From Candidatus Scatovivens sp. (lineage in GTDB: Bacteria; Bacillota; Clostridia; TANB77; CAG-508): a stretch of DNA of 32,000 nt. The notes beneath the pieces were generated by a model. That model had not been told where the DNA came from, did no database searches, and was given only the letters and a program-made list of their open reading frames with translations. The stretch is taken from NCBI GenBank assembly GCA_045646345.1, contig JAZRKN010000014.1, forward strand, positions 1 to 32,000, in the 5' to 3' direction. Positions 17,043 through 25,634 of the stretch are shown one piece after another (position 1 is the stretch's first letter; each line of letters starts with the position of its first letter). Made by a program: the position numbers and the translations under genes.

Positions 17043-18485
17043 TTAAATTATATCTTTTAATATTCTAGCCATTTGAACACCGTTAGCAGAAGCCATTATA
17101 AGACCTCTAGTAACACCGCCACCATCACCAATTGAATATAATCCTTTTATACTTGTCTCAAAATTATTATCTATAACAATTTCGTTTGAATAGAATTTTA
17201 TTTCTGCTGCATATAGTAGGTTATCTGGATTAGCAAAACCAGGAACAACTTTATCCATTGTTTGTATAAATTCTAGAATATCAACCATTGTTCTATAACC
17301 AATAGCATAAGTAATATCTCCAGCAACAGCTGTTTTTAATGTTGGTACAACAGAGTTTGCTTTTAAATCTTTATCCCAAGTACGTTTACCATTTAAAATA
17401 TCACCTAGTCTTTGAACTAATACATTTCCCATTCCTAATTGATTTGCATTTTCTCCGATATTAACACCATATTTAATTGGTTCTTCAAATGGATCATTGA
17501 AATGATGAGAAGCTAAAATTGCTAAATTTGTATTTGTGCTTTTTTTATTTTTATAAGAGTGACCATTAACTAAAGTTAAATCATTATCATAGACTTCATT
17601 AGCAACAAAACCACTTGGATTTTGACAGAAAGTTCTAACTTTATCTTTATAAGGTGGTAGATAACCAACAAATTTACCTTCGTAAAGATATTCATTAACA
17701 TCTTTCATTACTGAGTCTGGAAGTTCATATCTAACACCAACATCAACGACACCAGCACGATTTTTTATTGAGTGTTTTGCACACATTTCAGAAAGCCAAT
17801 TTGCACCTTTTCTTCCAATTCCTAACACAACATTTTCAGAATATATTTCCACATCTTTTGAACAATCTGTGGAACCTGAAGGTGAAATTATAACACCACA
17901 AACTTTATTATTTTCTACAATTAAATCTTTAACATTTGTTTCAAACATTATTTCAACGTTATTTGCTAAAATATAATCTTGAATTTTTTTATAAAGTTCA
18001 TGACTTTTTTCTGTTCCTAAATGTCTGATAGGGCAGTTTGCTAAAATAATATCATTTTCTTTAGCTCGATCTGCTATTTCTTGTATTTTATCTAAATTTT
18101 CTAATCCTTCGACATGAGGATCTGCCCCAAATTTTAAGTAGATTTCGTCAGTGTAAAACATTAAATCTTTTGTTTTTTCAACACCAAGATATTTATGAAG
18201 AATACCACCAACTTCAATTGAATCACTATCTTTGTTTGGAAGAGTAAGTTTTCCATCAGAAAAAGCTCCTGCTCCAGAGAATCCACTAGTAATACTACAA
18301 TATGGTTTGCATTTTACACATTTACCTGCTTTTTCAACAGGACAACTTCTTTTATCTACTGCTTTTCCTTGTTCAACTAAAAGGATTTTTTTATCTTTTG
18401 CAATTCCAAGTTCTATAAGTTCATAAGCTGTAAAAACACCACTAGGGCCAGCTCCGACTATAATTAAATCATAATTTTTATTCAA
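17043..18485 (-). CDS. FAD-dependent protein (COG2509-type uncharacterised NAD(FAD)-dependent dehydrogenase)
   Basis: It has an N-terminal DLIIVGAGPSGVFTAYEL dinucleotide fold and a C-terminal GDGGGVTRG. I place the start at the TTG at 18485, 5 nt after a GAGGTGA RBS. The ORF-track ATG at 18515 lies inside an extended -10 box (TGTATAAT, 18507-18514 on the minus strand). Confidence 0.85.
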   Translation of the reverse strand: MNKNYDLIIVGAGPSGVFTAYELIELGIAKDKKILLVEQGKAVDKRSCPVEKAGKCVKCKPYCSITSGFSGAGAFSDGKLTLPNKDSDSIEVGGILHKYLGVEKTKDLMFYTDEIYLKFGADPHVEGLENLDKIQEIADRAKENDIILANCPIRHLGTEKSHELYKKIQDYILANNVEIMFETNVKDLIVENNKVCGVIISPSGSTDCSKDVEIYSENVVLGIGRKGANWLSEMCAKHSIKNRAGVVDVGVRYELPDSVMKDVNEYLYEGKFVGYLPPYKDKVRTFCQNPSGFVANEVYDNDLTLVNGHSYKNKKSTNTNLAILASHHFNDPFEEPIKYGVNIGENANQLGMGNVLVQRLGDILNGKRTWDKDLKANSVVPTLKTAVAGDITYAIGYRTMVDILEFIQTMDKVVPGFANPDNLLYAAEIKFYSNEIVIDNNFETSIKGLYSIGDGGGVTRGLIMASANGVQMARILKDII

Positions 18486-18589
18486 TTTAATCACCTCACA
18501 AGGCATATTATACAATGGAAAAATAATAAATAAAAGAATTGTTTTTTTATGGTGAATAGTATATAATAAATATTAACATATCAAAAAGA

Positions 18590-19365: not shown

Positions 19366-21240
19366 ATGGAACAAGGAAATCCAAATAAAGTAAGTGCTAT
19401 TGTTGATGAAATAGTTAGAAATAATGCTATGTTTAAGTTAAAGTCTCCTATAGAAAGAGATAAAGAAAAATATTCTATGGAGAAAAGCATTAACACAGCG
19501 TTATCAGAACTAAATGAAACAGGAAAAGAACTAGTATTAGAAGAATTAGCTGTGAACCCTGATGAAAAGTTTAAAGGGTTTATTGATAATGCCGGAAACA
19601 TAGATATATCAGGAATATTAAAATTTACTTCAGCCGTTGTAAAAGTAAAAATAGAAGAAGCACAAAGAGAAGGTATAAATTTAAGAAAAGATGGACCAGG
19701 AATTGTAAATGGTACAAATTTTAAACCAGAAGACGTAATTGCAATGGCTGCAATTGGTGAAATGATTTCAAATTATGAAAATTTAACTGATAAGCAAAAA
19801 GCCAGTTTATTTAATGAGAAAATTTATATGGCAATGTCAAATGAAGATAGAAGAAGATTAAACGATAAAGTATATGAAGAAGCTAGTAAAAAAGATTTAT
19901 CGGATAAAGAAAGAAGAAAAGTAGAAAGACTAAGAAGAGAAACATTAATAAATGAAGCATATTTAGATATTATAGAAAAGAATCCAAATCTTTCATTTGA
20001 ACAAATTTCAGCGGAAATTGAAAGAAGACATCCAGAGCTTAGCGAAAAAGAAATAAGAGAGCAATGTAAAAAATATCATAGAGATGATAGAACGTCACAA
20101 GAAAATAGTAATGCTGCGAAGAAATCAACTTATGAAAACACAACGAGCATAACAGCTATTACCGTTAAACATCAATATAATAATTTAGTAAAAAAAGGTT
20201 TGGTCAGAGAAGCGGAAGAGTATATATTAAGTTATAAAGATGAGATACCTGAAATAGATAGATATTATCATAAGATGAAAGAAAGTGGAGCCATTACTAT
20301 TGAGCAAGATACAGGTAATGATTTAGAAACACAAACAGTACAACTTGAAGCAAGAGAAGATAATGTTAGTAATGAAGATAAAAATAATGCATTGGCAGAA
20401 TTTAAAAATGAAGCTCAAACGATTAACAATGCACTGGAAGAGAAAAAAATAGATATACAAAATGAAATTATAGCTCAACTAACAACAATATATGAAAAAG
20501 AAGGGCAGACTATAGAAGATAAAAATATAGCTATATCAATATATGCGGACTTTTTAAAAGAAATTGACGAGGAGGTAATTGCTGATTTTAAAAATAAAAG
20601 TGAAGATGAATTAATTGATTTTATGAAAAAATATTTTGAAGATTTTAAAGATAATATGTCTTCAAATAGCTTTGAAATATTACAAGGATTAGCTCAAAAT
20701 ACTTTCGGAGGAAACTTATATAAATTGTTAACTAACAAACAAATGTTGGAAGAAGTTCTTTTGCCAACATTAAACTCCGAAATGGAAAGATTAGGATCTA
20801 GTCAAGAACTAGAAGTAGTCACAGCACAAGAAAAATCAAAAAATGAAGAAGATGTAACTCCGATAACTGACACAGATGTCGAACAAGGAGTAAGACAAGG
20901 AACACTTAAACAAGAAGATTTAATTGTAGATACAGCAAGTGTTCGTACAGCTCAAAATGAGGAAGAAGGAAGAGTAAATGTTGAAATTCTTAACACAGAA
21001 CAAGCTGAGCAAGGAGTAAATTCAAAACCATTTAAAAATGTAAGTGCTTTTATGGGAATCATAGGAGATGAAAAAGATAATGTGGCAGAAAGTGATTTAG
21101 AAGAAACTCTTGCTGAGTTAGAAACAGCAGCACAAATGATAGAACAAGACCTACAAGTAACTCAAGGAAATATAGGCAATCCACAAACAAATTTAAATCA
21201 AGAACAAACAATTAAAGAAGATGAAGGTATAGAGCAATAA
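19366..21240 (+). CDS. Hypothetical 624-aa highly acidic, Glu/Lys/Asn-rich protein
   Basis: Long uninterrupted ORF with an AAGGAAG RBS-like element upstream and a terminator downstream. No signal peptide or TM segment and no recognisable domain. It contains coiled-coil-like and low-complexity stretches. Confidence 0.7.
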   Translation: MEQGNPNKVSAIVDEIVRNNAMFKLKSPIERDKEKYSMEKSINTALSELNETGKELVLEELAVNPDEKFKGFIDNAGNIDISGILKFTSAVVKVKIEEAQREGINLRKDGPGIVNGTNFKPEDVIAMAAIGEMISNYENLTDKQKASLFNEKIYMAMSNEDRRRLNDKVYEEASKKDLSDKERRKVERLRRETLINEAYLDIIEKNPNLSFEQISAEIERRHPELSEKEIREQCKKYHRDDRTSQENSNAAKKSTYENTTSITAITVKHQYNNLVKKGLVREAEEYILSYKDEIPEIDRYYHKMKESGAITIEQDTGNDLETQTVQLEAREDNVSNEDKNNALAEFKNEAQTINNALEEKKIDIQNEIIAQLTTIYEKEGQTIEDKNIAISIYADFLKEIDEEVIADFKNKSEDELIDFMKKYFEDFKDNMSSNSFEILQGLAQNTFGGNLYKLLTNKQMLEEVLLPTLNSEMERLGSSQELEVVTAQEKSKNEEDVTPITDTDVEQGVRQGTLKQEDLIVDTASVRTAQNEEEGRVNVEILNTEQAEQGVNSKPFKNVSAFMGIIGDEKDNVAESDLEETLAELETAAQMIEQDLQVTQGNIGNPQTNLNQEQTIKEDEGIEQ

Positions 21241-21247
21241 TAAAAAC

Positions 21248-21278
21248 AAAAAATCCAACTTTTATGTTGGATTTTTTT
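21248..21278. terminator. Bidirectional terminator between convergent genes
   Basis: ATCCAAC-TTTTAT-GTTGGAT stem flanked by an A-run and a T-run. The stop codon of the minus-strand gene lies in the loop. Confidence 0.75.
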
Positions 21279-21774
21279 CTTTATTAAATATTTTAAATAT
21301 AAAGTTCTTAATTGATGTAAACATCTTCTTATACCAAGGCAAATTATTATAATCTACTGGTAAAGCAGATGGATCTGATTTAACTTCTACAGTTGTATTT
21401 AAATTTATTTCTGTAGTAGTTGCTGTTTTATTATTAAAGATATTCTCTGGATTGTATTTTTCACGTAATTCTTTTTGTTTTTGTTTTTCGTTTTCTGCTA
21501 AAATAGCTTTTATTTGAGATTTCTCTTCTTCTGTTTCACACCAATAGTTTAATGAAAGTAGAGCTATAAGTGCAGCAGTTTTTTTAGAAACATTTTGGTC
21601 TTCTAAAGGAAGATTACTATCTAAATGTTTTTCATAAGTATCAAGAGCATAAGTATTAAAGATAGTCATAAGTTTTTTTGGAATTTTACTTACTAAGCTA
21701 TCATCTGTAAATGACAGAATTTCTAATAATTCTGCATAAGCATATGCTTGATCGGGCTTAATTTGAATTGCCAT
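21262..21774 (-). CDS. Hypothetical 170-aa protein
   Basis: This is the second gene of a two-gene minus-strand operon. The N-terminal helical domain reads ELLEILSFTDDSLVSKIPKKLMTIF...ALIALLSLNYWCETEEEK. It resembles uncharacterised clostridial proteins I recall only vaguely, so I give no family name. Confidence 0.7.
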   Translation of the reverse strand: MAIQIKPDQAYAYAELLEILSFTDDSLVSKIPKKLMTIFNTYALDTYEKHLDSNLPLEDQNVSKKTAALIALLSLNYWCETEEEKSQIKAILAENEKQKQKELREKYNPENIFNNKTATTTEINLNTTVEVKSDPSALPVDYNNLPWYKKMFTSIKNFIFKIFNKEKNPT

Positions 21775-21813
21775 TTATCTACTTGTCCTTTCATTAAAAT
21801 CTTTTGTTTGGTA

Positions 21814-22539
21814 TTACATTGTTCTATCTTCTGGTTCTGTTTTGGTATCTGTTGTTCTTGGAGTTGTCTTTTTTGGTTGTGGTATATAAATTTTTTGTTG
21901 AGTATTTTCAACAGTTAAATTTTCTGTCTTCAAAGGTGATTGGGCTGCTTCTTGAGTTCCTTTTTTTGGTAAATCGAATGAATCATCTAATTCGATTTCT
22001 GCTGAATCAGGAACATCCAAAATTTCTTCGCTATTTGTAAGTTCTTGAGGTTTTCTTGAATTATCGATAAGTGTTCTTGGTTGCGATTGTTGATCATTTT
22101 TTAATCTTTCTACAGCAATTTGTGCTGGAGTTTTATGATGTATGATAGCTTGTAATTGCTCTGGAGTAACAGTTTGATCAAGTTGTTGTTTTGTAGATTG
22201 ACTAATTGTTTGAACTTTAAGTCTATTTGGTGATGATTTAGCATTAATTTTGTCTGCTCTTTTCTTTTGATGATTTTCAAAAGCTGTTACAAGTCTTGCT
22301 CTTAAAGATTTTTTATCTGTAGCTTCCAGCGGATCTTTTGACGTAGTTTGATATCCTTTTGTATTTGTTGTATTATCTCCAAGTAATAATTGTCCTGGTT
22401 TGATTAATTTCATTTTTTGTAGTAATTCAGAGACTTTTTTCATTGCATTAGAAAAAGGGTTAGATGTATCTATGTCATGTATATAGCCAGTTTTGTCTTG
22501 ATTTAATTCTTTGTTTGGATCATTTTCTAGATTATCCAT
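21814..22539 (-). CDS. Hypothetical 241-aa Gln/Thr/Pro/Lys-rich, probably disordered protein
   Basis: The ATG at 22539 follows AAAGGGGG. The ORF-track start at 22605 would overlap the predicted promoter. Composition is low-complexity with no TM segment and no recognisable domain. Confidence 0.6.
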   Translation of the reverse strand: MDNLENDPNKELNQDKTGYIHDIDTSNPFSNAMKKVSELLQKMKLIKPGQLLLGDNTTNTKGYQTTSKDPLEATDKKSLRARLVTAFENHQKKRADKINAKSSPNRLKVQTISQSTKQQLDQTVTPEQLQAIIHHKTPAQIAVERLKNDQQSQPRTLIDNSRKPQELTNSEEILDVPDSAEIELDDSFDLPKKGTQEAAQSPLKTENLTVENTQQKIYIPQPKKTTPRTTDTKTEPEDRTM

Positions 22540-22576
22540 AAATCTAATACCCCCTTTTACTCCAATATATACTATT

Positions 22577-22605
22577 ATTTTATACATAACCGATCTAAAG
22601 TGCAA
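22577..22605 (-). promoter_or_regulatory. Sigma-A promoter of the 241-aa/170-aa operon
   Basis: The minus strand reads TTGCAC, 17 nt, TAAAAT. Confidence 0.5.
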
Positions 22606-22692
22606 TAAAATTACAAAAATTTAACCAAAATGACATATTTGGAGGTAATAATTAAAAAATAAAAAAGAAGATAAAAAAATAAAGTCATGGAT

Positions 22693-22722
22693 TTGACTTT
22701 AGAGTAAATAACATATTATAAT
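22693..22722 (+). promoter_or_regulatory. Sigma-A promoter of candidate small RNA A
   Basis: TTGACT (22693-22698), 18 nt, TATAAT (22717-22722). Confidence 0.6.
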
Positions 22723-22727
22723 AAAGA

Positions 22728-22840
22728 ATAAGGACACCAAAATTCAATTAGAATTTTGATGTGTTCCTTTGGAAAAATGAAAAGTCTTCCATTTAATCTG
22801 AGGGGTTGAGTCAGATTAGTAAAAGTGGAAGACTTTTTTT
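22728..22840 (+). ncRNA. Candidate convergent small RNA A (about 110 nt)
   Basis: Its own consensus promoter is followed by a 5' box GAATAAGGAC. A hairpin at 22730-22769 pairs AAGGACACCAAAATTC with GAATTTTGATGTGTTCCTT. A terminator follows at 22784-22840. It carries no credible ORF and ends 10 nt from the stop codon of the opposing ORF. Confidence 0.55.
22784..22840. terminator. Bidirectional terminator shared by small RNA A and the cassette-1 ORF
   Basis: The outer stem is GTCTTCCA / TGGAAGAC and the inner stem TAATCTGA / TCAGATTA. T7 follows on the plus strand and TTTTCATTTTT on the minus strand. Confidence 0.75.
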
Positions 22841-22849
22841 ATGTAAAAA

Positions 22850-23152
22850 CTAGTCGTTAGTTATTTTTTCAAGCGTAACATAAGAGTCTAAAATTTTGTG
22901 ATCATATCGATTGAATTTAGCTAAATAATTAAAAAGTTCTTGATTGATTTTTCTCATAATGTTTTTTAATTCATGTCTTTCAATTGCAGAAATTGACTTA
23001 TTATATTGTTCGACAATGCATTTGATAATTTCTTGAATGACAGTATAGCTAATATCTTTGTCTTGCTTTTCTTTTTTGCTTTCACTTATTGTTTCAATGT
23101 GTTTTTTTATAATAATATGAATTAAATATACATCAGTATCATTTTTCTTCAT
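22850..23152 (-). CDS. Hypothetical 100-aa helical protein, cassette 1
   Basis: The ATG at 23152 lies 7 nt after an AAAGGAGGAA RBS. The ORF-track start at 23191 falls inside the leader hairpin. The protein is hydrophilic with no TM segment. It is paralogous to the 99-aa ORF at 23492-23791, sharing IHxIIxxH[IL]xT[IL]xE, DKxxxY, KCxV and FxYL. Confidence 0.7.
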   Translation of the reverse strand: MKKNDTDVYLIHIIIKKHIETISESKKEKQDKDISYTVIQEIIKCIVEQYNKSISAIERHELKNIMRKINQELFNYLAKFNRYDHKILDSYVTLEKITND

Positions 23153-23161
23153 AAGTATTCC

Positions 23162-23185
23162 TCCTTTAAAACCTAATTTAAAGGA
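23162..23185 (-). promoter_or_regulatory. SD-sequestering hairpin in the cassette-1 leader
   Basis: The mRNA sense reads TCCTTTAAA-TTAGGT-TTTAAAGGA, a perfect 9-bp stem. The 3' arm is the 5' half of the Shine-Dalgarno sequence AAAGGAGGAA. Confidence 0.55.
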
Positions 23186-23260
23186 ACACATTTTGAAACT
23201 CTAATCTGAATCAATATCCTTATTCAATTTTCAAATGTTTGACAAATATCAAACACCAAC

Positions 23261-23289
23261 ATTATAGCACAACGGTTGACATAAGTCAA
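23261..23289 (-). promoter_or_regulatory. Sigma-A promoter of the cassette-1 mRNA
   Basis: The minus strand reads TTGACT, 17 nt, TATAAT. The -35 box lies inside the palindrome GTTGACATAAGTCAA. Confidence 0.7.
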
Positions 23290-23314
23290 AAGGTAAAAAA
23301 ATAAAGCCAATAAA

Positions 23315-23343
23315 TTGACTTTTTAATAGGGCAAAATTATAAT
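23315..23343 (+). promoter_or_regulatory. Sigma-A promoter of candidate small RNA B
   Basis: TTGACT (23315-23320), 17 nt, TATAAT (23338-23343). Confidence 0.65.
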
Positions 23344-23349
23344 ATGAAT

Positions 23350-23458
23350 AAGGACATCAAAATTCATTACGAATTTTGATGTATATCCTAAATATGGAAA
23401 ATCTTCCAAGTATCATCGGAAACATGGGTGGTCTCAGATGTTTGGAAGATTTTTTTTA
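23350..23458 (+). ncRNA. Candidate convergent small RNA B (about 110 nt)
   Basis: The 5' box TGAATAAGGACAT is followed by a hairpin pairing ACATCAAAATTC with GAATTTTGATGT. The terminator pairs ATCTTCCAA with TTGGAAGAT and ends in T8. It has the same layout as RNA A, with base changes that preserve the hairpin. Confidence 0.55.
23401..23458. terminator. Terminator of small RNA B, possibly also used by the cassette-2 ORF
   Basis: 9-bp outer stem plus an inner CATC/GATG pairing, then T8 on the plus strand. The minus-strand U-tract (TTTCCATATTT) is weak. Confidence 0.65.
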
Positions 23459-23491
23459 TTTATTGCAATATCAATGATTGATAGTTATTTT

Positions 23492-23791
23492 CTAGATTGA
23501 AGTAAGTAATTCGTATAATTCGGTTACATTTGAATCCCAAGGATTATCAATTAAGTAAACAAAAAAAGATTCTTTAACTCGATATATAGTAAAGTGAATT
23601 TCTAAGTTGATTGGTGTTAAAATAAATTTGTTTTTATTATCCGAATAGTGTCTCATTAATTTGTAGACAGCACATTTTAGCATGTCATACTCCAATAGTT
23701 TGTCATCATCTGATAGCTCAACTTCCTTAAGTGTTCTTAAATGTGTATTTATAATTTTGTGTATATTTTTAATTTCTTTAGTTTTTTCCAT
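23492..23791 (-). CDS. Hypothetical 99-aa helical protein, cassette 2 (paralogue of 22850-23152)
   Basis: The ATG at 23791 lies 4 nt after a TAGGAGGAA RBS. It has its own promoter and leader, is hydrophilic and belongs to no recognisable family. Confidence 0.7.
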   Translation of the reverse strand: MEKTKEIKNIHKIINTHLRTLKEVELSDDDKLLEYDMLKCAVYKLMRHYSDNKNKFILTPINLEIHFTIYRVKESFFVYLIDNPWDSNVTELYELLTSI

Positions 23792-23906
23792 AAAATTCCT
23801 CCTAAAATAAAATTAAAAAACATACTTATGAGTACACACCAAAAACTCTTATCTGAACCCATGTCCTTATTCAATTTTTAAATGTTTGGAAACCAAACAT
23901 GCAATT

Positions 23907-23935
23907 AGTATAGCACAAAAGTTGACATAAGTCAA
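23907..23935 (-). promoter_or_regulatory. Sigma-A promoter of the cassette-2 mRNA
   Basis: The minus strand reads TTGACT, 17 nt, TATACT. The -35 box sits in the same palindrome as in cassette 1. Confidence 0.65.
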
Positions 23936-23982
23936 AAAACAAGGCGATTAAATCTACAAAAATAAAATTTTACATAAAACAT

Positions 23983-24011
23983 TTGAAATATATAGAAAAA
24001 TACTGTATAAT
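23983..24011 (+). promoter_or_regulatory. Sigma-A promoter of the ABC-F gene
   Basis: TTGAAA (23983-23988), 17 nt, TATAAT (24006-24011), with TG directly upstream of the -10 (extended -10). Confidence 0.6.
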
Positions 24012-24044
24012 AGAATGGTTAAAAATATTAGGAGGTTTTTTATA

Positions 24045-25634
24045 ATGCTTTTATCAAATGGAGTAACTTTAAGATTTGGAAAAAGAGTACTTTTCGAAGA
24101 TGTTACTATAAAATTTACAAAAGGAAATTGTTATGGTTTGATTGGTGCTAATGGTGCCGGAAAATCTACTTTTTTAAAAATCTTATCAGGAGAAATAGAA
24201 CCTAATAAAGGTGAAGTTATTTTAGACAAAGGTGAAAGACTATCTGTATTAAAACAAGATCACTATGCTTTTGAAGGATATACAGTAATAGATACTGTTA
24301 TGATGGGAAATAGTGAACTTTATAAAATAATGAAAGAAAAAGATGCAATTTACTCAAAACCAGATTTCTCAGAAGAAGATGGAATGAAAGCTGCAAAACT
24401 TGAAGAAAGATTTGCTGAATTGGATGGATGGAACGCTGAATCAGATGCAGCTAAAATGTTAAATGATTTAGGTATTGATGTAGATTTACATTACAAATAT
24501 ATGAGCGAAATTGAAGCTAAAGATAAAGTTAAAGTTCTTTTAGCACAAGCGTTATTTGGAAATCCAGATGTTTTATTATTAGACGAGCCTACAAACGACT
24601 TAGATATTAAAACAATAAATTGGTTACAAGATTTCTTAATGGATTTCGAAAATACTGTAATTGTCGTATCTCACGATAGATATTTCTTAAATAAAGTATG
24701 TACTCATATTGCTGATGTTGACTTTGGAAAAATTAAAGTATATCCAGGAAACTATGACTTCTGGTATGAATCAAGCCAACTTGCATTAAAACAAATGAGA
24801 GATGCAAATAAAAAGAAAGAAGAAAGAATTAAAGAGTTACAAGAATTCATTGCTAGATTTAGTGCTAACGCTTCAAAATCAAAACAAGCTACATCTAGAA
24901 AGAAATCTTTAGAGAAAATTGAACTTGAAGAGATTAAACCTTCAAACAGAAAATATCCTTATATAGATTTTAAACCAGATAGAGAACAAGGAAAAGAAAT
25001 TTTAGAAGTTAAAAATATTTCTAAAACAATAAATGGAGAAAAAATATTAGATAATGTTAGTTTCACTGTAAAAAGAGAAGATAAAATAGCTCTTTTATCA
25101 GATAATGAAATTGCAAAAACTGTTTTATTCCAAATCATTGCTGGAGAAATGGAACCAGATGAAGGTGAATTAGTTTGGGGAACAACAATTACTAAAGATT
25201 ATTTCCCAAAAGATAATAACTATATGTTTGAACAAGATTTAAGTATAACAGATTGGCTACGTCAATATTCAAAAGATCCAGATGAAACATATGTTAGAAG
25301 TTTCTTAGGAAGAATGCTTTTCTCTGGAGAAGAAGCTTTGAAAAAGGTTGCAGTTTTATCAGGAGGAGAGAAAGTAAGATGTGTTCTTTCAAAATTAATG
25401 CTTTCAGGAGCAAACTTCTTAATTTTTGATGAACCAACAAACCACTTAGATATGGAATCAATTACAGCGTTAAATGATGGTATGACAAAATATAAAGGAA
25501 TAATGATGTTTACATCTCATGACCACCAATTAACACAAACTGTAGCAAACAAAATTATAGATATAACAGATAATAATGTAGTTGTAAGAGAATGTACTTA
25601 TGACGAATACTTAGAAGAACAAGAAAATAAATAG
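24045..25634 (+). CDS. ABC-F family ATPase (YbiT/YkpA-like, ribosome-associated type)
   Basis: It has two ABC domains and no TM segment. NBD1 shows GANGAGKST, the Q-loop and LLLDEPTNDLD. A Lys/Glu-rich linker follows. NBD2 shows LSGGEKVR and LIFDEPTNHLD. The ATG at 24045 lies 9 nt after AGGAGG, whereas the ORF-track ATG at 24015 would precede the predicted transcription start. Confidence 0.9.
   Translation: MLLSNGVTLRFGKRVLFEDVTIKFTKGNCYGLIGANGAGKSTFLKILSGEIEPNKGEVILDKGERLSVLKQDHYAFEGYTVIDTVMMGNSELYKIMKEKDAIYSKPDFSEEDGMKAAKLEERFAELDGWNAESDAAKMLNDLGIDVDLHYKYMSEIEAKDKVKVLLAQALFGNPDVLLLDEPTNDLDIKTINWLQDFLMDFENTVIVVSHDRYFLNKVCTHIADVDFGKIKVYPGNYDFWYESSQLALKQMRDANKKKEERIKELQEFIARFSANASKSKQATSRKKSLEKIELEEIKPSNRKYPYIDFKPDREQGKEILEVKNISKTINGEKILDNVSFTVKREDKIALLSDNEIAKTVLFQIIAGEMEPDEGELVWGTTITKDYFPKDNNYMFEQDLSITDWLRQYSKDPDETYVRSFLGRMLFSGEEALKKVAVLSGGEKVRCVLSKLMLSGANFLIFDEPTNHLDMESITALNDGMTKYKGIMMFTSHDHQLTQTVANKIIDITDNNVVVRECTYDEYLEEQENK

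Follow-up and report, generated by a model that had tools for sequence, protein, structure and literature searches.

Two tandem chromosomal cassettes of Candidatus Scatovivens in which a convergent small RNA resembles the mRNA leader: a possible three-part RNA switch around a small protein gene

A stretch of 32,000 nucleotides (nt) from Candidatus Scatovivens sp. (contig JAZRKN010000014.1, positions 1 to 32,000, the whole of which is called the window below) carries two tandem cassettes spanning 22659-23937, each consisting of a minus-strand open reading frame (ORF) and a convergent plus-strand unit. Comparison of these cassettes with their relatives leads us to propose, with somewhat less than even confidence, that in each of them a small protein gene is the centre of a three-part RNA switch, in which the mRNA leader pairs with its own 3′ untranslated region (3′UTR) and a small RNA from the opposite strand acts both as antisense to that 3′UTR and as a mimic of the leader. 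A wider claim is more tentative and we hold it to be possible rather than probable: that this is an undescribed post-transcriptional switch, in which the leader and the convergent small RNA mimicking it compete for the same 3′UTR hairpins, a fast-evolving address of 9-15 nt in the leader and the terminator loop keeps paralogues orthogonal, and the gene under control belongs to a new four-helix family of gut Clostridia. All the evidence is comparative or thermodynamic, i.e. computational; the elements, their conservation, the strand on which the hairpins are selected and the cassette-specific, directional co-variation are observed in silico.

The window is a chromosome segment of 28% GC encoding PcrA, an ABC-F ATPase, a PHO4 transporter and Tex. 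The non-coding flanks of its two cassettes are 76-93% identical and the ORFs are without BLASTP similarity; a profile-profile comparison of ORF1 with ORF2 (hhalign) gave a full-length alignment (E 2e-4), and a joint family alignment was built. Homologous loci were collected by three routes: from ORF homologues and their contigs, by a genome scan with a 20-mer of the small RNA, and by a metagenome scan with an 18-mer of the leader, which yielded at least six real loci among the matches listed, the rest being mostly chance matches. The comparison set comprises about 25 distinct cassettes, the fetched loci being labelled L001, L057, L142 etc.; cassette counts ignore phylogeny, and unique sequence contexts were used. 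Related DNA was met solely in gut-metagenome assemblies or metagenome-assembled genomes labelled Candidatus Scatovivens or uncultured Clostridia. The scan of viral contigs with the small-RNA 20-mer and the BLAST searches of plasmids and phages gave no match.

The anatomy is identical in every fetched cassette (about 25, from Ca. Scatovivens-like Clostridia), the orientation is uniform, and the copy number is one or two. On the mRNA side the order is promoter, 5′ hairpin, TTGAAAATT-GAATAAGGA, a variable segment (V), GA(G/A)TTTTGATGTG(C/T)TCC, a spacer, the Shine-Dalgarno sequence (SD) and an ORF of about 100 amino acids (aa). On the opposite strand, converging on the ORF, come a box, hairpin 1 (H1), a spacer and a long terminator hairpin (T1). 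The copy of V in T1 is written V′, the arm of the leader that matches the 3′ arm of H1 is called W, and H1′ and T1′ denote the hairpins in minus-sense RNA. R1 is a covariance model of the small-RNA 5′ module, the E-values of which are rough. The elements in the window are as follows.

22693-22722, plus strand: putative promoter P(+)A of small RNA A, TTGACT-18-TATAAT, 11/12 consensus
22726-22842, plus strand: predicted small RNA A, about 110-117 nt, fold -39.1 kcal/mol, z -6.2, R1 66.7 bits; box 22726-22735, H1 22730-22769, T1 22780-22837 with T-run to 22840
22806-22819, plus strand: V′A TTGAGTCAGATTAG, in the apical loop and 3′ arm of T1, 13/14 identity to leader V at 23201-23214
22850-23152, minus strand: ORF1, 100 aa, of a small lineage-specific family of hydrophilic, predicted four-helix proteins
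23153-23257, minus strand: predicted ORF1 mRNA leader, R1 20.2 bits over full length; 5′ hairpin 23235-23257, pre-box and box TTGAAAATTGAATAAGGA 23217-23234, V 23201-23214, W with anti-SD 23180-23202, SD 23158-23167
23261-23289, minus strand: putative promoter P(-)A of the ORF1 mRNA, TTGACT-17-TATAAT with TG extension, from the consensus scan
23315-23343, plus strand: putative promoter P(+)B of small RNA B, TTGACT-17-TATAAT, 11/12 consensus, kept in orthologous loci
23346-23458, plus strand: predicted small RNA B, about 107-113 nt, fold -36.4 kcal/mol (23346-23460), z -5.6, R1 63.2 bits; box 23346-23355, H1 23350-23389, T1 23396-23457, V′B CATGGGTGGTCTCAGAT 23423-23439
23492-23791, minus strand: ORF2, 99 aa, distant paralogue of ORF1
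23792-23901, minus strand: predicted ORF2 mRNA leader, R1 21.5 bits over full length; 5′ hairpin 23881-23901, box 23864-23872, V CATGGGTTCAGATAAG 23848-23863, W with anti-SD 23821-23849, SD 23796-23805
23907-23935, minus strand: putative promoter P(-)B of the ORF2 mRNA, TTGACT-17-TATACT with TG extension, from the consensus scan

The leader turned out to be a weaker copy, in the same sense, of the small RNA, with which it shares the box, the 3′ arm of H1 (W) and the anti-SD-like YTCC. R1 scores the small RNAs at 48-70 bits and every leader at 14-27 bits over full length, and finds no further match elsewhere in the window. The box GAATAAGGAC lies at 22726 and 23346 on the plus strand and has minus-strand copies at 23225-23216 (one mismatch, GAATAAGGAT) and 23872-23863, matches with at most one mismatch numbering 6 against 1.8 expected. 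Since box, V and W are inverted repeats in the DNA flanking the ORF, they have the same sense in RNA; the first-pass annotation of the window had already remarked that the small-RNA 5′ end has the sense of the leader, and this is borne out and becomes the key feature of the locus. The 5′ hairpin is present in 25/25 leaders, and an anti-SD:SD stem appears in the minimum-energy fold of 12 of the 14 leaders examined. The common parts also co-vary within cassettes: L146b has GATTCTG and L156 the box variant GACAAGGAA in either copy, and L149 has GCTCTC.

Inverted repeats around an ORF might also act or arise at the level of DNA, as sites of recombination or inversion, as operators or through gene conversion, an explanation to which we give hardly any credence. 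About 25 cassettes all have the same orientation, with no inverted variant among them and no recombinase nearby, the V tracts of 9-15 bp in unrelated flanks are too short for conversion, and the G.U-type asymmetries reported below are signatures of RNA. DNA inversion and gene conversion were rejected as candidates on the absence of inverted variants and the shortness of the tracts.

A further link between the two RNAs is V, a hypervariable segment of 9-15 nt just 3′ of the leader box; it differs between cassettes, and the T1 of the same cassette repeats it in the same sense, as V′, across apical loop and 3′ arm. Examples are listed here.

Window, cassette A: leader V TTGATTCAGATTAG, T1 copy V′ TTGAGTCAGATTAG
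Window, cassette B: CATGGGT..TCAGAT in both leader V and V′
L057: CAAAACTCAGAGT in both leader V and V′
L075a: V/V′ TTGGAA(T/C)TCATAGTA
L142: TTACTGGCAAT in both leader V and V′
L146a: V/V′ TGGCTA(T/A)ATTAAGT
L149: V/V′ TTTAAAA(T/C)TCGG
L156: TGAAGGTTAG in both leader V and V′

The match is cassette-specific: over 18 distinct cassettes the cognate scores sum to 356, against 222 +/- 14 after permutation with a maximum of 295 (1e5 permutations, p<1e-5). Leader V is predicted to pair with the antisense of T1 at -16.7 kcal/mol in cognate and -9.5 in non-cognate combinations, the cognate partner being the best in 13/21, while with the small RNA itself the corresponding values are -9.9 and -9.3 and the cognate is best in 3/21. 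That leader V pairs directly with the small RNA, at the 5′ arm of its terminator, was rejected, as such pairing has no cognate specificity and the L146a identity crosses a bulge.

G.U pairs are tolerated in RNA, and the complementary strand shows an A.C mismatch instead, so that each hairpin can be assigned to one strand. The leader 5′ hairpin served as a positive control and gave, over 25 leaders, 23 G.U pairs in the mRNA sense versus 5 in the opposite one. T1 has 45 G.U pairs in the plus and 20 in the minus sense, and its plus strand is the more stable in 20/22 cassettes; the values for T1 of window cassette A are -25.5 (plus) versus -20.1 (minus), with G.U pairs only in the plus sense, and window cassette B has 5 G.U pairs in the plus versus 1 in the minus sense. 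The exceptions to this bias include the promoter-less cassettes L142 and L146a/b. Being more stable and richer in G.U pairs on the plus strand, T1 is selected on that strand and so shaped for the small RNA. H1 behaves in the opposite way, with 2 G.U pairs in the plus sense versus 34 in the minus sense and a summed energy of -292 (plus) versus -341 (minus) kcal/mol. H1 is thus selected on the minus strand, and a minus-sense RNA must therefore contain H1′, which means that the ORF mRNA would read through T1′ at least sometimes and that the small-RNA gene would lie wholly inside the mRNA 3′UTR, in antisense. Together with the U-rich complement of the box and -10 region that comes after it, H1′ resembles a second terminator of the mRNA. 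If the mRNA includes T1′ and H1′, the small RNA would be antisense to its 3′ part, with which the mRNA-side T-runs and the minus-sense selection of H1 agree.

A directional test bears on the pairing of the leader. Of the transitions that separate a leader from its small-RNA copy, 35 put G/U in the leader and A/C in the copy and 6 do the reverse (unique sequence contexts, binomial 5e-6), which is the pattern to be expected if the leader pairs, with tolerance of G.U, with the strand complementary to the small-RNA gene; a shared protein site would not be expected to give it. The transitions within V alone number 7 G.U-tolerated versus 2 not, and at least one such position (L152) lies in an unpaired part of T1. 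A replication-strand mutation bias was rejected as the source of the asymmetry, as the skews of the window predict the opposite direction. Cofolding the leader with its own 3′UTR gains 14-29 kcal/mol and takes up the anti-SD.

This bias bears directly on the possibility that the small RNA is a decoy, titrating a trans-acting factor (the ORF product, or a host factor such as CsrA or the 30S subunit) that binds box, W and V in both RNAs. The same-sense similarity in three modules would suit such a role, V varies together with the ORF, and the AAGGA of the box is SD-like and resembles a CsrA site. The 35:6 ratio, however, indicates base pairing rather than recognition by a protein, most members of the family are neutral or acidic, ORF1 orthologues close in sequence carry a drifted V, and V′ is partly inside a stem; we consider a decoy quite improbable.

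The plus-strand unit itself agrees well with the first-pass annotation, which had placed at the 3′ end of each ORF a consensus promoter facing it and driving a separate convergent RNA of about 110 nt, made of a box, a strong hairpin and a terminator close to the ORF stop codon. The promoters, box, hairpins and terminators are all recovered and conserved among relatives, and together they predict such an RNA. The four cassette promoters are among the five best matches (10-11/12) in a scan of 21000-25000, the fifth being a candidate ABC-F promoter. As promoter-like sites are not enriched in the AT-rich window DNA (19 found versus 24 expected), the weight of the promoter evidence comes from conservation: in 17/22 distinct homologous cassettes a plus-strand -35/-10 pair of at least 10/12 stands at a constant 2-3 nt from the box, and L075b has a plus-strand promoter with a gap of 7 nt to the box. 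No plus-strand promoter was recognisable in L142, L146a, L146b and L057 among the 22 cassettes compared. Absence of the plus-strand promoters from homologous loci, named in the first-pass annotation as the observation that would count against it, is accordingly not what is seen within the clade of the window.

Both plus-strand units fold as H1 followed by T1, the T-runs of which end at 22840, 9 nt from the ORF1 stop codon (22850-22852), and at 23457, 34 nt from that of ORF2 (23492-23494). T-runs were read by eye; automated T-tail scoring was discarded as confounded by pairing between A-runs and T-runs. T1 of cassette A has T-runs on both strands, in keeping with the earlier suggestion that it is plausibly bidirectional; the cassette B terminator has T8 on the plus strand and only TTTTCC on the minus strand. 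Some relatives have a T-run on a single strand only, and in L142 and L146a/b, without a plus-strand promoter, it is on the mRNA side only. One earlier claim did not survive, namely that the hairpin is kept between the two window copies despite substitutions: the H1 copies differ by one C/T (ACACC... vs ACATC...), and this is not compensated on the plus strand, where copy A has a C.A mismatch or a shifted register, and forms a G.U pair on the minus strand. Compensatory changes emerge only when homologues are added, with double changes at 7/11 H1 pairs, 90% of cells paired and 0/500 shuffles equal. RNAalifold run on the whole small-RNA alignment missed H1 owing to gaps, and H1 was tested on a trimmed alignment. 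The base of T1 covaries at 7/10 pairs.

The plus-strand unit might still be no regulator in trans or in antisense, H1 and T1 being tandem terminators or 3′UTR elements and the promoter giving only interference, insulation or noise. The minus-strand selection of H1 would fit this, as would the divergent L142 and L146, which retain H1, T1 and V′ with no recognisable plus-strand promoter. We judge it unlikely, since a near-consensus promoter and its spacing to the box are kept in 17-18/22 cassettes while the spacer sequence drifts, and the plus-sense G.U pairs of T1 go with the promoter-bearing cassettes. Attenuation is another conceivable function: T1 would be conditionally read through to give a long antisense RNA over the ORF, with the shared box and hairpin sensing the signal of the mRNA leader. 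Promoter, structured leader and terminator are all directed into the ORF and the 5′ module is common to the mRNA leader, but no conserved antiterminator alternative was found, the H1-T1 spacer is variable and the stem of T1, with over 20 pairs, is very long and stable, and attenuation seems to us very unlikely.

Three further observations concern the small RNAs and promoters. An ATG occurs at an equal relative position in both small RNAs (22776-22808 and 23394-23477, plus strand; MKSLP... and MENLP...); a small-RNA-encoded peptide (MKSLPFNLRG in A) was rejected as unlikely because the start codon is missing in most relatives. There is no Rfam match at gathering score in the window, and by E-value the region 22600-24000 gives chance-level matches only (E about 4). 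Both ORF promoters have their -35 hexamer inside a perfect palindrome, TTGAC-ATAA-GTCAA (TTGACATAAGTCAA at P(-)A), at 23276-23289 and 23922-23935, the same in both cassettes, which could be an operator for a DNA-binding regulator.

Where transcripts end, how they pair in vivo and in which direction the effect runs we infer from these patterns, and the proposed switch would work as follows. The minus-strand mRNA would begin with a protective 5′ hairpin, followed by the box, the address V and the arm W with its SD-masking anti-SD. Its 3′UTR would be antisense to the small RNA through T1′, read-through transcripts would continue through H1′, and H1′ with the U-rich complement of the box would act as a second terminator. 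The strong convergent promoter would make a small RNA of about 110 nt ending at the strand-optimised T1, a perfect antisense of the mRNA 3′UTR. The leader, being a same-sense copy of the small RNA, is for that reason complementary to its own 3′UTR: V would provide a specific nucleation site by pairing with T1′ at its apical loop and 5′ arm, and box and W/anti-SD would pair with the H1′ region in read-through transcripts. Such 5′-3′ pairing may keep the anti-SD off the SD (translation on), or may stabilise or protect the mRNA. The small RNA would displace the leader from the 3′UTR, so that the SD is re-sequestered by the anti-SD and the duplex becomes a substrate of RNase III. The cassette-specific V would prevent cross-talk between paralogous cassettes of one genome.

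Several points weigh against this proposal. T1′ stays closed in the cofolds, and the minimum-energy structure is without V:anti-V pairing. The transition counts are not phylogenetically independent, and position 3 of W (G vs A) recurs in several sequence contexts; same-sense similarity would also arise from a shared protein-binding site. T1′ in the window has a mRNA-side T-run, so most mRNAs may stop there, and mRNAs ending at T1′ would be without the H1′ region needed for the pairing of box and W. The sequences are metagenome assemblies from a single narrow clade, transcript ends are derived from sequence rather than expression data, and the sign of regulation, i.e. which state is 'on', is a guess.

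The encoded proteins help to decide how far the locus may be a classical toxin-antitoxin pair. ORF1 has 15 homologues only, and by profile search the family amounts to 19 representatives at 50% identity among 1.84e9 proteins. The AlphaFold2 model of ORF1 is a soluble four-helix bundle (predicted local distance difference test, pLDDT, 91); the family is hydrophilic, with a grand average of hydropathy (GRAVY) of about -0.2 to -0.6, and mostly neutral or acidic; for the products of 99-100 aa GRAVY is -0.3 to -0.6. Searches of the ORFs against Pfam, PHROG, NCBIfam, PADLOC, PDB sequences and, with Foldseek, PDB and BFVD gave no informative match. The early description of a non-hydrophobic protein of about 100 aa is therefore upheld by the negative GRAVY and the predicted bundle, and a hydrophilic, near-neutral four-helix protein counts against both a classical type I toxin and a basic RNA-binding protein.

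The likeliest alternative to the proposed competition for the 3′UTR is plain 3′-overlapping antisense control, possibly a true type I pair, in which the small RNA only pairs with the complementary terminator or 3′UTR and leads to decay by RNase III, the ORF product is a toxin, and the leader similarity reflects an intramolecular fold of the mRNA and has nothing to do with how the small RNA acts. Convergent promoters, a shared terminator, a 5′ hairpin and a SD-masking stem, as in par and bsrG/SR4, are what it predicts, and the elements are conserved in cassettes of one or two copies. It is less easily reconciled with a non-hydrophobic protein of about 100 aa, with the failure of BLAST to find a plasmid or phage copy and of PADLOC to give a match, and with the stable synteny beside the ABC-F gene, and it leaves unexplained why V′ copies the leader V. 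We regard it as rather unlikely, though worth keeping in view.

The neighbourhood of the cassettes offers further observations. The ABC-F ATPase gene (24015-25634, plus strand; NCBIfam PRK15064, E 2e-207) is of housekeeping type and divergent from cassette B; it is the cassette neighbour in most related loci (L001, L005, L142, L146), and a functional link between cassette and ABC-F is possible. Its promoter would lie here:

23983-24011, plus strand: candidate ABC-F promoter, 11/12, back to back with P(-)B

On the other side, ORFs of 624 aa (plus strand), 170 aa (minus) and 241 aa (minus) at 19366-22539 are low-complexity and charged, have no match in Pfam, PHROGs, NCBIfam or PADLOC, and are syntenic with cassettes in related contigs (L001, L003, L139). 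Between the convergent 624-aa and 170-aa ORFs, at 21248-21277, lies a perfect bidirectional terminator-like palindrome, AAAAAATCCAAC...GTTGGATTTTTT. Upstream of small RNA A, the stretch 22659-22700 repeats in degenerate form (76%) the DNA directly before small RNA B, in which the ORF1 promoter has its -35, and may be what a tandem duplication or the loss of a third cassette has left behind.

Elsewhere, a cassette of 663 bp is 99.85% identical in two contigs (L149 1-1304, L150 1172-1329), one of which has an insertion sequence (IS) element of the rve family directly upstream of it; the downstream flanks are wholly different, diverging after position 1967, right past the small-RNA promoter, and the cassette may behave as a discrete unit. 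Divergent family members in L154 and L156 (ORF 1201-1509) adjoin the gene of a FAD-dependent protein (PF21688). The window has a similar gene at 17043-18515, with no cassette beside it, as the covariance model finds none.

If the proposed switch is true, one module would join antisense small RNAs at mRNA 3′ ends with 5′-3′UTR pairing, and would add to them a small RNA mimicking the leader and, in a terminator loop, a natural specificity code that can evolve. As an RNA device it would be compact and orthogonal, like those now being engineered on the basis of type I systems, and terminator loops would be able to carry regulatory addresses. The locus is in any case a first handle on an uncharacterised protein family beside a housekeeping ABC-F gene in uncultured gut Clostridia, and the assignment of strands by G.U and A.C, together with the directional-transition test of pairing, could be extended to other convergent loci.

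Among known systems, par of pAD1 has convergent promoters, a shared terminator giving complementary loops, a SD-sequestering stem and a 5′-terminal helix in the mRNA (PMC7472228). The present locus resembles par (RNA I/RNA II, Fst) in its predicted convergent promoters, terminator hairpin (shared and bidirectional in cassette A), SD-masking stem and 5′ helix. It lacks the direct repeats that make the 5′ regions of par complementary: its repeats are inverted, leader and small RNA have the same sense, and there is therefore no par-type 5′ complementarity. It also lacks a small hydrophobic toxin (about 30-60 aa), Fst being a membrane peptide of 33 aa and the protein here a hydrophilic helical one of 100 aa, and unlike par it is a chromosomal, syntenic cassette, absent from the plasmid and phage collections searched. 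In bsrG/SR4, binding of the small RNA to the mRNA 3′ end alters SD sequestration, the first contact being made through the terminator loop (PMC3834814). As in this system and in txpA/RatA and yonT/SR6, all of B. subtilis, a small RNA of about 100 nt would be convergent with and antisense to the mRNA 3′ end, the overlap being predicted here; bsrG/SR4 is by analogy the nearest working model, although the toxins are small and hydrophobic and leader mimicry or a hypervariable address is not described there. The analogy with type I toxin-antitoxin loci drawn in the first-pass annotation hence stands for the layout, which is par-like and bsrG/SR4-like, and falls for membership of the family, given the hydrophilic protein of about 100 aa and the inverted repeats.

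The hok mRNA of E. coli plasmid R1 (fbi/tac) has its 5′ end locked by a 3′ element until it is processed, and an antisense RNA is also part of the system. Pairing between 5′ and 3′UTRs, with a proposed control of translation or of RNase access, has been described in Firmicutes for icaR of S. aureus (PMC3868564) and hbs of B. subtilis (PMC5737220). The leader-3′UTR complementarity seen here is likewise kept in evolution, by the permutation test, the cognate pairing energies and the transition ratio given above. In icaR the 3′UTR pairs with the SD itself, whereas here it is complementary to the upstream box, V and W/anti-SD, and none of icaR, hbs and hok has a convergent leader-mimicking small RNA or a cassette-specific variable pairing segment. 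As par, bsrG/SR4, icaR and hbs are all without the combination of a leader-mimicking small RNA and a variable address, we place the locus outside the named families and within antisense and 3′UTR control.

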